64,000 nucleotides of DNA from Escherichia phage REP2. The position numbers and the translations under genes were made by a program. Within the stretch, counting starts at the first letter, position 1. Each line of letters opens with the position of its first letter. Positions 2,776 through 36,488 of this stretch are shown here, piece after piece. Below the pieces are notes generated by a model, which was given only the letters and a program-made list of their open reading frames with translations, did not search any database and was not told where the DNA came from. The stretch is taken from the sequence record OQ174501.1; one strand, 5' to 3'.

Positions 2776-4460
2776 AGAATTTTAAACTAAACCGAGTTAG
2801 GTATCAAAATATAATGTCAGTAGGTGGAAATCCTATTGACATTCAATTAGATAAGGTTCAAAAAACTCTTATTACTGGACGAAATGGCGGTGGTAAGTCT
2901 ACTATGTTAGAAGCCATCACATTTGGGCTTTTTGGCAAGCCATTTCGTGATGTAAAGAAAGGTCAATTAATAAACAGCACAAATAAGAAAGAACTTTTAG
3001 TTGAACTGTGGATGGAATATGATGAGAAAAAGTACTATATCAAAAGAGGACAAAAACCAAACGTTTTCGAAATCACCGTTAACGGTACACGTCTTAATGA
3101 ATCTGCCAGCAGTAAAGATTTCCAAGCAGAATTTGAACAGCTTATCGGAATGTCATATGCCAGTTTCAAGCAGATTGTTGTCCTTGGTACAGCAGGGTAT
3201 ACCCCTTTCATGGGTTTGTCGACCCCTGCGCGAAGAAAGCTTGTGGAAGACCTGCTTGAGGTAGGAACATTAGCTGAAATGGATAAGCTTAATAAAGCAC
3301 TAATACGTGAATTAAATTCGCAGAACCAAGTGCTTGATGTTAAAAAAGATAGTATTATCCAACAAATTAAAATATATAATGATAACGTTGAACGCCAGAA
3401 AAAATTAACGGGTGACAACCTTACACGTCTACAAAATATGTATGATGATTTGGCAAAAGAAGCTAGAACGCTAAAATCGGAAATAGAAGAAGCTAACGAA
3501 AGATTAGTTAATATTGTTTTGGATGAAGACCCGACTGATGCATTTAATAAAATCGGTCAAGAAGCAGTTTTAATTAAATCAAAAATTGACTCGTATAATA
3601 AAGTCATTAATATGTATCACGAAGGTGGATTATGTCCAACCTGTTTGTCACAATTAAGTTCCGGTGATAAAGTTGTTTCTAAAATTAAAGATAAAGTTTC
3701 TGAATGTACGCATTCGTTTGAACAGCTTTCAACACACCGTGATAATTTAAAAGTTCTTGTTGATGAATACCGAGATAATATTAAAACTCAGCAGTCGTTG
3801 GCAAATGATATTCGCAATAAAAAGCAATCTCTAATCACGACGGTAGATAAAGCTAAAAAAGTTAAAGCAGCTATAGAAAAAGCATCTTCTGAGTTTATTG
3901 ACCATGCTGATGAAATAGCACTGCTTCAAGAAGAACTTGATAAAATTGTTAAGACAAAAACTAATTTAGTAATGGAAAAATACCACCGAGGAATTTTGAC
4001 TGATATGCTCAAAGATTCTGGTATTAAAGGTGCTATTATTAAAAAGTACATTCCATTATTTAATAAGCAGATTAACCATTATCTTAAAATAATGGAAGCG
4101 GATTATGTGTTTACATTAGATGAAGAATTTAATGAGACAATTAAATCCCGTGGTCGTGAAGATTTTAGTTATGCTTCATTCAGTCAAGGTGAAAAAGCAC
4201 GAATTGATATTGCTCTTTTATTTACTTGGCGTGATATTGCTGAAAAAGTTTCAGGTGTTAAAATAAGTTGTTTATTTCTTGATGAAGTGTATGACGGTGC
4301 ATTTGATGCTGAAGGCATTAAAAATGTAGCTAAAATTTTAGATGGTTTGAAGGATACCAACTTCTTCATAATTTCGCATAAAGACCATGATCCGCAGGAT
4401 TATGGACAGCATATTAAAATGGAAAAAGTTGGTAGATTTAGTGTTGCCACTATTAATTAA
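2772..4460 (+). CDS. 46: recombination endonuclease subunit gp46 (Rad50/SbcC-like ATPase)
   Basis: 562 aa; Walker A GRNGGGKST, long central coiled-coil, zinc-hook-like CPTC, C-terminal LFLDEV signature region; apparent GTG start. Confidence 0.9.
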   Translation: MKNFKLNRVRYQNIMSVGGNPIDIQLDKVQKTLITGRNGGGKSTMLEAITFGLFGKPFRDVKKGQLINSTNKKELLVELWMEYDEKKYYIKRGQKPNVFEITVNGTRLNESASSKDFQAEFEQLIGMSYASFKQIVVLGTAGYTPFMGLSTPARRKLVEDLLEVGTLAEMDKLNKALIRELNSQNQVLDVKKDSIIQQIKIYNDNVERQKKLTGDNLTRLQNMYDDLAKEARTLKSEIEEANERLVNIVLDEDPTDAFNKIGQEAVLIKSKIDSYNKVINMYHEGGLCPTCLSQLSSGDKVVSKIKDKVSECTHSFEQLSTHRDNLKVLVDEYRDNIKTQQSLANDIRNKKQSLITTVDKAKKVKAAIEKASSEFIDHADEIALLQEELDKIVKTKTNLVMEKYHRGILTDMLKDSGIKGAIIKKYIPLFNKQINHYLKIMEADYVFTLDEEFNETIKSRGREDFSYASFSQGEKARIDIALLFTWRDIAEKVSGVKISCLFLDEVYDGAFDAEGIKNVAKILDGLKDTNFFIISHKDHDPQDYGQHIKMEKVGRFSVATIN

Positions 4461-5170
4461 TGTTTGTGCTTACAGTTATCATTATGCCACCTTGATAAAT
4501 TTCCGAAAGTGGTAACTTTACCGCAATGGACGCAAGTACCAGTCTTTTCAGTTTTCTTGCGTCCATTTGGATTTTTCTTGCAGAAATTTCTATGCGCTGC
4601 GATAACGCATTTCTTGCCTATCATTCCGCAGAATTCGCAGGATGTTTCTTCAAGAACGATTGCTTTAAGCCCGTTTGAGATATTATTTCTGTGTTCTTTA
4701 GACATTGGTGGTCTAACTTTAGGATTAGGGTGATTTGGGCAGTTATCAAAATGCCAACGATTCATATTCCCGCTTAATCCAGACTTACCGCAATGAGGAC
4801 AAGTTAGTCTTGCTTTATTAGCTACTGCATCAGACATTTTCTTTCGTGTCTCTTGGGAGAATTCTTTGTTCTTTTCTATTTCCCAGAGTTTACGACGAAT
4901 CCAACCGAAAGTTTTATTGTTGCGTTTAGCGTATTTCGTAGAAACTGTCATCATGTTAGCAGCATAGACTAATTTTGGTTCAGAAGGATAAATTTTTACT
5001 AAAAGTTGATGAGCTACATAGTGCTCTTCTGGTGTTAAATCTACTAAGTTTGAAGCATCATCACTTCCATTTAAACAGCGCGGTATAATGTGATGAGATT
5101 CAGTATAACAATCAAGTTTTCGAGATTTAGCATTAGAGATTAACTTTTCATAAATTAGTTTATAATTCAT
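4457..5170 (-). CDS. free-standing HNH family homing endonuclease with three C-terminal CxxC zinc-finger repeats
   Basis: 237 aa on the opposite strand to all neighbours; HNH motif SHHIIPRCLNGSDDASNLVDLTPEEHYVAH; repeats CPHCG..RWHFDNC; SD AAGGAT upstream of the ATG. Confidence 0.7.
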   Translation of the reverse strand: MNYKLIYEKLISNAKSRKLDCYTESHHIIPRCLNGSDDASNLVDLTPEEHYVAHQLLVKIYPSEPKLVYAANMMTVSTKYAKRNNKTFGWIRRKLWEIEKNKEFSQETRKKMSDAVANKARLTCPHCGKSGLSGNMNRWHFDNCPNHPNPKVRPPMSKEHRNNISNGLKAIVLEETSCEFCGMIGKKCVIAAHRNFCKKNPNGRKKTEKTGTCVHCGKVTTFGNLSRWHNDNCKHKH

Positions 5171-31518: not shown

Positions 31519-31890
31519 ATGTTTAAAATCGGTAAGAAATATCGCATTCGTGAAGGTGAAGAACAGAAATATCTACTTTCTGCTAGTAATAGGAATAGTT
31601 CTATTAATGCTGTAATATTGACTAGTGAATTTATCGTTGAAGATATGAAAGGTCATAATGTTACAATGATTAGTACAGCATCTGGAAATGATGGAAAAAT
31701 TCTTCACAGTTTTCAGAGTAATGTTCTAATATATGATGAAGAATTTGACCTATTCGAAGAAGTCCCCGAAGGTTTTGATTTTGAATGCACTATCACTATG
31801 AAATCTGGTGACCCTCTTTCATTTACGGTTAAAGATGAAAGAAGTCGCTTGAGAATTATTAGTCTCCTTCAAGCCATTAAATTTGAGTGA
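31519..31890 (+). CDS. hypothetical protein
   Basis: 123 aa ORF. Confidence 0.45.
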   Translation: MFKIGKKYRIREGEEQKYLLSASNRNSSINAVILTSEFIVEDMKGHNVTMISTASGNDGKILHSFQSNVLIYDEEFDLFEEVPEGFDFECTITMKSGDPLSFTVKDERSRLRIISLLQAIKFE

Positions 31891-31894
31891 AATT

Positions 31895-32155
31895 ATGAAA
31901 TATATTAATCGTTCTATCGCAGCATTAGTATTAGCAGTGTCTTTAGCAGGATGTACTGATACTGATAATGCAACCAAAATTTTGTCATCAAGCGGTTTTA
32001 CTAATATTGAAATCACTGGATACAACTGGTTCGGTTGCTCTGAAAATGATTTCCAACATACTGGATTTCGTGCTATTGGACCTACTGGGCAGAAAGTAGA
32101 AGGAACCGTGTGTTCTGGTCTATTCTTCAAGGATTCGACTATCCGTTTTAAATAA
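31895..32155 (+). CDS. hypothetical lipoprotein
   Basis: 86 aa from the ATG at 31895; signal plus lipobox LAGC. Confidence 0.45.
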   Translation: MKYINRSIAALVLAVSLAGCTDTDNATKILSSSGFTNIEITGYNWFGCSENDFQHTGFRAIGPTGQKVEGTVCSGLFFKDSTIRFK

Positions 32156-32175
32156 AAGGCCTTCGGGCCTTTAGC
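32156..32175 (+). terminator. terminator-like hairpin (GGCC-UUCG-GGCC) with U-rich tail
   Basis: aaggccttcgggcctttagcttt; same hairpin-ctttagcttt architecture as at 532-556. Confidence 0.4.
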
Positions 32176-32224
32176 TTTATGATTACCGGAGTATAATATT
32201 CCCGAAACCAAACGAGGATAAGTG

Positions 32225-34042
32225 ATGATTAAGAATGAAATTAAAATTCTGAGCGATATTGAACATATCAAAAAGCGTAGCGGCATGTATATTGGCTCTT
32301 CTGCTAATGAAATGCATGAGCGCTTTCTGTTTGGTAAATGGGAAAGTGTTCAGTATGTACCTGGTCTTGTTAAGCTTATTGATGAAATTATCGATAACTC
32401 AGTAGATGAAGGTATTCGTACTAAGTTTAAATTCGCAAATAAAATTAATGTTACTATTAAAAACAATCAAGTAACAGTTGAAGATAACGGTCGCGGTATT
32501 CCACAAGCGATGGTTAAAACACCTACCGGTGAAGAAATTCCTGGTCCTGTTGCTGCATGGACTATTCCAAAAGCAGGTGGTAACTTTGGTGATGATAAAG
32601 AACGCGTCACTGGCGGTATGAATGGTGTTGGTTCTAGTTTGACAAACATTTTTTCTGTGATGTTTGTCGGTGAAACTGGTGATGGTCAAAATAATATTGT
32701 AGTTCGTTGTTCAAATGGCATGGAAAATAAATCATGGGAAACTATTCCTGGAAAATGGAAAGGAACTCGTGTTACTTTCATTCCTGATTTTATGTCATTT
32801 GAAACTAATGAGCTGTCCCAAGTTTATCTTGACATTACACTAGATCGTCTCCAGACACTTGCAGTAGTTTATCCTGATATTCAATTTACCTTTAATGGTA
32901 AAAAGGTTCAGGGCAATTTTAAGAAATATGCACGCCAATATGATGAGCATGCTATTGTTCAAGAACAAGAAAATTGCTCTATTGCGGTTGGTCGTTCACC
33001 GGATGGTTTTCGTCAATTAACTTATGTGAATAACATTCACACTAAGAATGGTGGCCATCACATTGACTGTGTTATGGATGATATTTGTGAAGACCTTATT
33101 CCACAAATCAAACGTAAGTTCAAAATTGATGTGACTAAAGCACGCGTTAAAGAATGTTTGACTATCGTTATGTTTGTTCGTGATATGAAAAACATGCGAT
33201 TTGATTCTCAAACTAAAGAGCGTTTGACTTCTCCATTTGGTGAAATCCGTAGTCATATTCAGCTTGATGCTAAAAAGATTTCACGTGCTATTTTGAATAA
33301 TGAAGCAATTCTGATGCCAATTATTGAAGCTGCACTAGCTCGTAAATTGGCGGCGGAAAAGGCAGCAGAAACTAAAGCAGCTAAAAAGGCTTCTAAAGCT
33401 AAGGTTCATAAACATATTAAAGCGAATCTTTGTGGTAAAGATGCTGACACTACTCTTTTCTTGACTGAGGGTGATTCGGCTATCGGATATCTTATTGATG
33501 TTCGTGATAAAGAACTTCACGGTGGTTATCCATTGCGCGGTAAAGTTCTCAACAGTTGGGGTATGTCTTATGCAGATATGCTTAAAAACAAAGAACTATT
33601 TGATATTTGCGCAATCACTGGATTAGTTCTCGGTGAAAAAGCTGAAAACTTGAATTATCATAATATTGCTATTATGACTGATGCTGACCATGATGGTCTA
33701 GGAAGCATTTATCCTTCTCTGCTCGGATTTTTTAGTAATTGGCCAGAATTGTTTGAGCAAGGACGAATTCGCTTTGTCAAAACTCCTGTAATCATCGCTC
33801 AGGTCGGTAAAAAACAAGAATGGTTTTATACAGTCGCTGAATATGAGAGTGCCAAAGATGCTCTACCTAAACATAGCATCCGTTATATTAAAGGACTTGG
33901 CTCTTTGGAAAAATCTGAATATCGTGAGATGATTCAAAATCCAGTATATGATGTTGTTAAACTTCCTGAGAACTGGAAAGAGCTTTTTGAAATGCTCATG
34001 GGAGATAATGCTGACCTTCGTAAAGAATGGATGAGCCAGTAG
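32225..34042 (+). CDS. 39: DNA topoisomerase II large subunit, uninterrupted gene 39 plus 60 (GyrB-like ATPase and Toprim)
   Basis: 605 aa; GHKL ATPase region, Toprim TEGDSA and DADHDG; the residues around the T4 gene 60 bypass site (DADHDG-LGSIYPSL) are encoded contiguously. Confidence 0.85.
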   Translation: MIKNEIKILSDIEHIKKRSGMYIGSSANEMHERFLFGKWESVQYVPGLVKLIDEIIDNSVDEGIRTKFKFANKINVTIKNNQVTVEDNGRGIPQAMVKTPTGEEIPGPVAAWTIPKAGGNFGDDKERVTGGMNGVGSSLTNIFSVMFVGETGDGQNNIVVRCSNGMENKSWETIPGKWKGTRVTFIPDFMSFETNELSQVYLDITLDRLQTLAVVYPDIQFTFNGKKVQGNFKKYARQYDEHAIVQEQENCSIAVGRSPDGFRQLTYVNNIHTKNGGHHIDCVMDDICEDLIPQIKRKFKIDVTKARVKECLTIVMFVRDMKNMRFDSQTKERLTSPFGEIRSHIQLDAKKISRAILNNEAILMPIIEAALARKLAAEKAAETKAAKKASKAKVHKHIKANLCGKDADTTLFLTEGDSAIGYLIDVRDKELHGGYPLRGKVLNSWGMSYADMLKNKELFDICAITGLVLGEKAENLNYHNIAIMTDADHDGLGSIYPSLLGFFSNWPELFEQGRIRFVKTPVIIAQVGKKQEWFYTVAEYESAKDALPKHSIRYIKGLGSLEKSEYREMIQNPVYDVVKLPENWKELFEMLMGDNADLRKEWMSQ

Positions 34043-34071
34043 TTTACTTTACTACAAGGATGTGGTATAAT
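34042..34071 (+). promoter_or_regulatory. T4-type early promoter
   Basis: gtttac, 18-bp spacer, tataat. Confidence 0.5.
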
Positions 34072-34096
34072 TAATTGGGCAAATGAGGATATTGAA

Positions 34097-34300
34097 ATGA
34101 AATCATATAAAGTAAATTTAGAACTTTTTGATAAAGCAGTTCATCGAGAATATAGAATCATTCAACGCTTTTTCGATATGGGAGAAGCCGAAGAATTTAA
34201 AAACCGCTTTAAGGATATTAGAGATAAAATTCAATCCGACACTGCAACTAAAGATGAACTACTAGAAGTTGCTGAAGTTATTAAACGCAATATGAATTAA
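34097..34300 (+). CDS. hypothetical small protein (rIIA.1-like position)
   Basis: 67 aa ORF. Confidence 0.4.
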
Positions 34301-34310
34301 TGAGGAAATT

Positions 34311-36488
34311 ATGATTATCACCACTGAAAAAGAAACAATTCTTGGCAATGGTTCTAAATCAAAAGCATTTAGCATCACAGCATCTCCTAAAGTATTTAAA
34401 ATTCTGTCATCTGATTTGTATACAAACAAGATTCGTGCAGTAGTCCGTGAATTAATTACTAATATGATTGATGCCCATGCACTTAATGGAAATCCTGAAA
34501 AATTTATCATACAAGTTCCAGGACGATTAGATCCGCGATTTGTTTGTCGAGATTTTGGTCCGGGTATGAGTGATTTTGATATTCAGGGTGATGATAATTC
34601 TCCTGGGTTATATAATTCATACTTCAGTTCATCTAAGGCTGAATCTAATGACTTTATTGGCGGGTTTGGTTTAGGTTCTAAATCTCCGTTTAGTTATACT
34701 GATACATTTAGTATTACTTCGTATCATAAAGGTGAAATTCGTGGTTATGTAGCTTACATGGATGGTGATGGTCCACAGATTAAACCTACATTCGTAAAAG
34801 AAATGGGTCCAGATGATAAAACTGGTATTGAAATCGTAGTTCCAGTTGAAGAAAAAGACTTTAGAAACTTTGCTTATGAAGTTTCTTATATCATGCGACC
34901 ATTCAAAGATTTGGCTATCATTAATGGTCTTGACCGCGAAATTGATTATTTTCCGGATTTTGATGACTATTACGGTGTAAATCCAGAAAGATACTGGCCT
35001 GATCGTGGTGGATTATATGCTATCTATGGCGGTATTGTTTATCCTATCGATGGTGTTATTAGAGACCGTAACTGGCTAAGCATTCGCAATGAAGTGAATT
35101 ACATTAAGTTTCCAATGGGTTCACTTGATATTGCTCCATCTCGCGAGGCTCTTTCACTGGATGATCGTACTCGTAAAAATATTATTGAACGAGTTAAAGA
35201 ACTCAGTGAGAAAGCATTTAATGAAGATGTAAAACGATTTAAAGAATCCACATCTCCCCGTCATACATATCGTGAATTGATGAAGATGGGGTATTCTGCT
35301 CGAGATTATATGATTAGTAATTCAGTCAAATTTACGACTAAAAATCTGTCATATAAGAAGATGCAAAGCATGTTTGAACCTGATAGTAAGTTATGCAATG
35401 CAGGAGTTGTGTATGAAGTAAATCTTGACCCTCGACTGAAGCGCATTAAGCAAAGTCATGAAACTTCAGCCGTTGCATCAAGTTATCGTCTGTTTGGTAT
35501 TAATGCAACAAAAATTAATATCGTTATTGATAATATTAAAAATCGTGTTAATATTGTCCGTGGATTAGCACATGCGTTAGATGATAGTGAATTTAATAAC
35601 ACTTTGAATATTCATCACAACGAACGCCTTCTGTTTATTAATCCAGAAGTAGAATCGCAGATTGATTTGCTTCCTGATATTATGGCGATGTTTGAAAGTG
35701 ATGAAGTTAACATTCATTATTTGTCAGAAATTGAAGCTTTAGTTAAAAGCTATATTCCAAAGGTAGTTAAAAGTAAAGCTCCTCGTCCTAAAGCTGCTAC
35801 AGCATTTAAGTTTGAAATTAAAGACGGGCGCTGGGAAAAAGAGGAATTATTTACGCTCACATCAGAAGCAGATGAAATTACTGGGTATGTAGCGTATATG
35901 CATCGTTCTGATATTTTCTCTATGGATGGTACTACATCTCTTTGTCATCCATCTATGAATATTTTGATTCGTATGGCTAATCTTATTGGCATTAATGAGT
36001 TTTATGTTATTCGTCCGCTTTTGCAGAAAAAGGTAAAAGAACTCGGTCAGTGCCAATGTATTTTTGAAACTCTGCGTGATTTATATGTAGATGCTTTTGA
36101 TGATGTAGATTATGATAAGTACGTAGGTTATTCAAGTTCAGCTCAACGATATATTGATAAAATTATCAAGTATCCTGAACTAGATTTTATGATGAAGTAC
36201 TTCAGTACAGATGAAGTTTCTGAAGAATATACACGACTCGCTAATATAGTTAGTTCATTGCGCGGTGTATATTTTAATGGTGGAAAAGATACCATCGGTC
36301 ATGACATCTGGACAGTAACTAATCTTTTTGATGTATTATCAAATAATGCTTCAAAAAACAGTGATAAAATGGTTGCTGAGTTTACCAAGAAATTCCGTAT
36401 TGTTTCCGACTTCATCGGATATCGCAACTCTTTAAGTGATGATGAAGTTTCTCAAATCGCTAAAACTATGAAGGCCCTTGCGGCCTAA
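34311..36488 (+). CDS. rIIA: rIIA protein
   Basis: 725 aa; size and position match T4 rIIA, upstream of rIIB. Confidence 0.85.

Follow-up and report, generated by a model that had tools for sequence, protein, structure and literature searches.

The uninterrupted topoisomerase gene 39 of Escherichia phage REP2 and its relation to the split genes 39 and 60 of phage T4

The type II topoisomerase has two subunits in phages T2 and T6 and three in T4 (Nat Commun 2024, PMC11461880), and the mobA insertion has been described as splitting the gene 'as compared to related phage' (Edgell/Gibb/Belfort review, PMC2988022). In the 64,000-nt stretch of Escherichia phage REP2 (OQ174501.1) analysed here, hereafter the window, the open reading frame at 32225-34042 raises the question of whether the large subunit is encoded by one gene or by two, and, if by one, whether this gene is the ancestral allele, a restored one or an artefact of the record. 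Gene 39 has for decades been known to be unsplit in T2, in T6 and in the majority of T4-like phages; that the split and the bypass of T4 stem from a MobA cassette was demonstrated in 2011, and a survey followed in 2022. The unsplit gene 39 described below is confirmed as real, correctly interpreted and already published.

The reading frame of gene 39 and its product

Gene 39 is a single open reading frame on the plus strand, from the ATG at 32225 to the TAG at 34040-34042, with 605 codons plus the stop (features are collected in Table 1). There is no internal stop in the 605-codon frame, and none of 2000 mononucleotide shuffles of this ORF was free of stops. An in-frame GTG at 32222 gives a 606-aa version in the ORF list; the start of gene 39 is the ATG at 32225, as annotated in T4, T2, T6 and REP3. 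Over this region the sequence agrees at 100% with that of Escherichia phage REP3 (OQ174502.1; Straboviridae, Tequatrovirus), in which the same ORF is annotated as 'DNA topoisomerase II large subunit' (WCA46051.1), and at 98% with those of T6, Sf21, VEc20 and several hundred further T-even-type phages. Its position between 39.1 (upstream) and rIIA.1/rIIA (downstream) is common to the annotations of REP3, T2 and T6.

The protein matched phrog_543 of the PHROGs database, 'DNA topoisomerase II large subunit', over residues 1-605 (E=1.6e-295), and PDB entry 8ylu_C, the cryo-EM structure of T6 gp39, across the same 1-605 residues with 1388 bits. The domain order of GHKL ATPase, transducer, Toprim and Toprim-C is complete, and the HATPase_c, DNA_gyraseB and TOPRIM_C matches each exceeded the Pfam gathering cut-offs. 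The Pfam Toprim model gave no score against this protein; the EGDSA and DADHDG motifs are nonetheless present, both of these Toprim halves lying within the same ORF. The codons GAT GGT CTA GGA at 33692-33703 encode D490, G491, L492 and G493 inside the peptide NIAIMTDADHDGLGSIYPSLLGFF; the preliminary description had placed a contiguous Toprim segment at exactly these codons, and codons and peptide were both found there.

Very few residues separate this protein from its closest characterised relatives. T6 gp39 (YP_010067157.1 / AXN58044.1; 605 aa) differs at one residue (Q526H) and T2 gp39 (AYD82600.1; 605 aa) at two (F70L, T173D), and the nucleotide differences over 1818 positions (30 vs T6 and 63 vs T2) are mostly synonymous. 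T2 and T6 share with the window the same domain order, the contiguous Toprim and a separate gp52, and no functional difference from their gp39 is expected. T6 gp39 has been expressed as a single polypeptide, T6 topoisomerase II with gp52 was active in vitro, and its cryo-EM structure was solved (PMC11461880).

Among cellular proteins, GyrB/ParE and eukaryotic TOP2A/B were colinear with the gene 39 protein over about residues 6-603 in the same domain order, the best matches being human TOP2B/TOP2A (E~1e-59) and ParE (E~4e-48). The homology of the phage subunit to GyrB/ParE and to the N-terminal half of eukaryotic Topo II is distant, and E. coli GyrB contains a large insertion domain that is lacking in the shorter phage subunit. 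The phage type II topoisomerase relaxes DNA but does not supercoil it.

Conventional translation of the gene 39 mRNA would yield a complete GyrB-like subunit. Since this subunit is 99.8% (604/605) identical to the characterised T6 gp39, we infer from the sequence that two gp39 and two gp52 chains would assemble into an A2B2 type IIA topoisomerase with ATP-dependent relaxation activity, which, like that of T2 and T6, would support phage DNA replication.

Table 1 Features of gene 39, its partner gene and the HNH endonuclease gene in the window
Feature	Position	Strand	Basis	Remark
Mob-type HNH homing endonuclease, free-standing, 237 aa	4457-5170	-	38% identical to HY01 MobA, N-terminal 119 aa	
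Shine-Dalgarno-like GAGGA	32214-32218	+	read from sequence	6 nt before ATG 32225; function inferred
Gene 39, uninterrupted, type IIA topoisomerase large (GyrB-like) subunit	32225-34042	+	phrog_543, PDB 8ylu_C, T2/T6 gp39	
GHKL ATPase domain, aa 47-149	32363-32671	+	Pfam HATPase_c, E=1.9e-9	EIIDNSVDE and DNGRGIP / GGMNGVG motifs
Transducer domain, aa 250-384	32972-33376	+	Pfam DNA_gyraseB, E=1.5e-13	
FDSQTK loop	33200-33217	+	motif position	QTK = aa 329-331, within transducer
Toprim catalytic glutamate motif EGDSA, aa 415-419	33467-33481	+	sequence	in T4 encoded in gene 39
64-nt parental segment	33643-33706	+	blastn breakpoints	replaced in T4 by the 1117-nt MobA cassette
Toprim acidic motif DADHDG, aa 486-491	33680-33697	+	sequence	in T4 in gene 60, directly before the 50-nt gap
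GGT/CTA, counterpart of T4 take-off GGA and resume codon TTA	33695-33700	+	codon alignment	without stop, gap or hairpin
TOPRIM_C domain, aa 519-604	33779-34036	+	Pfam TOPRIM_C, E=4.1e-7	gp52-interacting C-terminal part; in T4 in gp60
Gene 52, GyrA-like partner subunit, 442 aa	40662-41990	+	phrog_551, E=8e-221; Pfam DNA_topoisoIV, E=9.5e-77	

Comparison with T4 genes 39 and 60 and the MobA cassette

T4 gp39 and gp60 were translated from NC_000866 using the annotated join and were then compared with the window protein by BLASTP. Residues 1-473 of the window protein corresponded to residues 1-473 of T4 gp39 (465/473 identical, 98%), and residues 472-605 to residues 27-160 of T4 gp60 (128/134 identical, 96%), with no gap between the two halves. 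Taken together, gp39 and gp60 of T4 contain the same ATPase, transducer, Toprim and Toprim-C regions, and the coding sequence on either side of the cassette shows 96-99% identity. By blastn, positions 31893-33642 of the window matched T4 5661-3911 and positions 33707-34400 matched T4 2793-2100. The breakpoints against T4 are therefore located at 33642/33643 and 33706/33707, with 64 nt between them here and 1117 nt in T4.

The cassette within T4 genes 39 and 60 (the two genes with the cassette at NC_000866 2458-5328) comprises a 43-aa C-terminal extension (CTE) of gp39, mobA/60.1, a 30-aa N-terminal extension (NTE) of gp60, homR, which is a diverged version of the coding segment that was replaced, the 50-nt gap and nine further diverged nucleotides. 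The T4 homR was identical to the window at 35 of 48 nt (73%), as against 196/200 and 199/200 in the two flanks. In a published survey, a MobA element of about 1.1 kb was reported to insert into a 'parental' Topo2L gene, deleting 64 nt in the HY01 example; the 3' boundary of the cassette was placed just past D490/G491, with another 9 nt added in the E. coli clade, and homR was given as 67-81% identical to the parental sequence (Manning & Atkins, 10.1101/2022.08.31.505936). The breakpoints and identities found here reproduce these figures, including the 64-nt segment and the D490/G491 boundary.

At the junction itself, T4 reads GAT GGA, TAG...50 nt...GGA, TTA GGT, whereas the window reads GAT GGT CTA GGA without interruption. 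The T4 take-off site is GGA-TAG with a UUCG hairpin, and the T4 enzyme has three subunits; none of these features was seen in the window. When the whole 64-kb window was searched, the 1117-nt T4 insertion was not found by blastn, tblastn with HY01 MobA, the T4 CTE and the T4 NTE gave no significant match at the gene 39 locus, and an ungapped scan for the 50-nt gap reached no more than 26/50 matching positions. The sole MobA-like tblastn match in the window was a different HNH gene, at 4457-5170. Folding of the junction RNA gave no bypass-like hairpin (z = -0.45 vs shuffles), and the T2 fold was identical, while the same folding applied to the T4 sequence formed a 10-bp UUCG stem-loop.

These results bear out the statements of the preliminary description that genes 39 and 60 form one unsplit gene here and that no translational bypass element is present: the 605 codons are stop-free, the protein is colinear without a gap with gp39 plus gp60, and the insertion of about 1.1 kb, the 50-nt gap and the take-off hairpin are all missing. 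An internal stop or an untranslated gap, which that description had named as the observation that would speak against it, was not found in the ORF. The alignment it had proposed as a check, with T4 gp39/gp60 and T2/T6 gp39, was colinear, with one to two amino acids separating the protein from T6 and T2.

An unsplit gene could also have arisen by secondary reversion ('hit and run'), in which the MobA cassette was once present in an ancestor and later disappeared, so that the unsplit gene was restored and is not ancestral. Clades in which the cassette has decayed or been lost are on record (Aeromonas, Campylobacter), and mixed infections allow free recombination between phage alleles (Manning & Atkins, 10.1101/2022.08.31.505936); the presence of another Mob-type HNH endonuclease in the window, moreover, implies that this lineage has been exposed to such elements. 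However, the documented losses keep the CTE/NTE and the split gene (10.1101/2022.08.31.505936), whereas here no CTE, NTE, homR-type sequence or gap was seen. The 64-nt segment has the T2 parental sequence but is just 73% identical to T4 homR, and it bears no scar. Recombination with a naive allele would in any case bring back the ancestral form, which makes the distinction mostly semantic. Reversion is accordingly regarded as very improbable, and positions 32225-34042 almost certainly represent an intact Tequatrovirus gene 39 that encodes the whole GyrB-like subunit as one 605-aa polypeptide, a parental allele without a trace of the MobA cassette.

Distribution of the unsplit gene and the ancestral state

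A first count of 498 'full-coverage' records was rejected as a measure of unsplit genes. Because the search merges segments separated by as much as about 1.65 kb, T4-type records were counted as well; a 241-nt query spanning the junction was therefore used instead. Of the 499 phage records that this query matched, 455 were contiguous across it, with T2, T6, RB3 and PST among them. The T4 cassette was found in 43 records, near-complete in 41, among them T4 isolates, RB55, RB59, HY01 and HY03. At the protein level, a 127-aa peptide spanning the junction was contiguous by tblastn in 1954 of the 2051 phage records with a homolog, a set that spans Tequatrovirus, Mosigvirus, Tegunavirus, Klebsiella, Acinetobacter, Aeromonas, Vibrio, Campylobacter and jumbo phages and one Lak phage.

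These counts also bear on whether the contiguous gene might be an assembly or annotation artefact, that is, whether a real T4-type insertion was collapsed or lost in assembly. Nothing specific points in this direction, apart from misassembly as a general risk. All of the 455 independent records show this contiguous junction, the reading frame is perfectly kept through the junction, and T2 and T6 topoisomerase II have been purified as two-subunit enzymes, with T6 gp39 expressed as one protein (PMC11461880). An artefact is thus considered the least probable explanation, below even the reversion discussed above, and the contiguous parental gene is retained.

Since majority rule and the cellular and eukaryotic outgroups agree, the unsplit gene is taken as the ancestral state. 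The preliminary description had called this an 'ancestral, unsplit arrangement', and the claim is supported by the majority of phages together with the colinear GyrB, ParE and TOP2A/B outgroups; the unsplit alleles have likewise been termed 'parental' (Manning & Atkins, 10.1101/2022.08.31.505936). The unsplit gene 39 is the usual arrangement, that of T2 and T6, and the split T4 genes are the derived exception. The value of the result lies in annotation: one gene should be labelled 'DNA topoisomerase II large subunit', and no gene 60 or recoding event should be expected. Where T4 serves as the annotation template, its split gene should be treated as a derived exception.

A predicted homing target and the elements around gene 39

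Codons 468-501, which cover the whole replaced segment, are identical in DNA sequence to T2. The uninterrupted segment is thus nucleotide-identical to the site in T2 gene 39 that MobA nicks, and this T2-identical junction is a small addition to an otherwise published picture. According to Bonocora et al. 2011, as related by Manning & Atkins (10.1101/2022.08.31.505936), MobA nicks T2 gene 39, mixed infection leads to homing of the cassette into T2, and the bypass gap guards the invaded allele against re-cleavage. The same second-hand account puts the nick only approximately, at a position that corresponds to about 20 nt upstream of 33697/33698, within 33643-33706. Given its identity to T2 throughout the MobA target, this allele is expected to act as a naive site for homing. 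During co-infection with a MobA-positive relative, gene 39 would be nicked at about this position and repaired from the invaded allele, and it would thereby acquire the split and the bypass. Judged from this identity, gene 39 is probably a fully naive homing site that would acquire the cassette at high frequency beside HY01 or RB55.

The HNH endonuclease encoded at 4457-5170 contains three CxxC...H...C zinc-finger-like repeats in its C-terminal half. Its gene is located between gene 46 and rpbA, on the strand opposite to its neighbours, with a 4-nt overlap with the gene 46 stop. Since at least 80% of this segment is carried by just 59 of 504 related phage records, it is a sporadic mobile insertion.

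A scan with the sigma-70 consensus flagged no promoter ahead of gene 39. The sequence AGCTTTA-12 nt-TATAAT at 32173-32197 (+) resembles the T4 MotA-type middle-promoter consensus, and it is a possible MotA-dependent middle promoter of gene 39. Directly before it, and directly after the 39.1 stop, a UUCG-tetraloop hairpin (AAAGGCC-TTCG-GGCCTTT) is present at 32155-32172 (+); it shares a GCC-UUCG-GGC core with the T4 take-off stem-loop, a likeness that is probably coincidental. Immediately after the gene 39 stop, a strong early-promoter-like site (TTTACT-17 nt-TATAAT, extended TG, 10/12 match) was found at 34043-34071 (+), which presumably drives rIIA.1/rIIA.

Upstream, between 39.2 and 39.1, a 123-aa ORF at 31519-31890 (+) belongs to phrog_622, a family whose label gives no function, and has a weakly goF-like N-terminus. 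It is present in T2 and T6 ('similar to RB69ORF005c') and absent from T4 and HY01, which places a small indel polymorphism immediately ahead of the topoisomerase gene. The adjoining gp39.1 (31895-32155, +) has 86 aa, carries a lipoprotein-like signal peptide with the lipobox LAVSLAGC, and occurs also in T2, T6 and re-sequenced T4. In the T4 reference record (NC_000866 5398-5661) the annotated gp39.1 product has only 65 aa owing to a frame break, because of which a probable small lipoprotein is hidden in that record.

The T4 reference record also differs within gene 39, where it reads MR-LIR-QTK at about 4345-4353 and the window reads MR-FDS-QTK (33200-33208). The FDS reading at the QTK loop is common to the window, T2, T6, HY01 and re-sequenced T4 (MT984581.1), and the difference in the reference is a compensated -1/+1 frameshift (CGATT-GATTCGTCAA vs CGATTTGATTC-TCAA). 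A link between this difference and the split was considered and rejected, since re-sequenced T4 and HY01 are both split and both read FDS. LIR is most likely an old sequencing error still carried through NP_049621.1. The T4 reference probably contains two errors in this region, LIR in gp39 and the shortened gp39.1, both of them corrected in re-sequenced T4.
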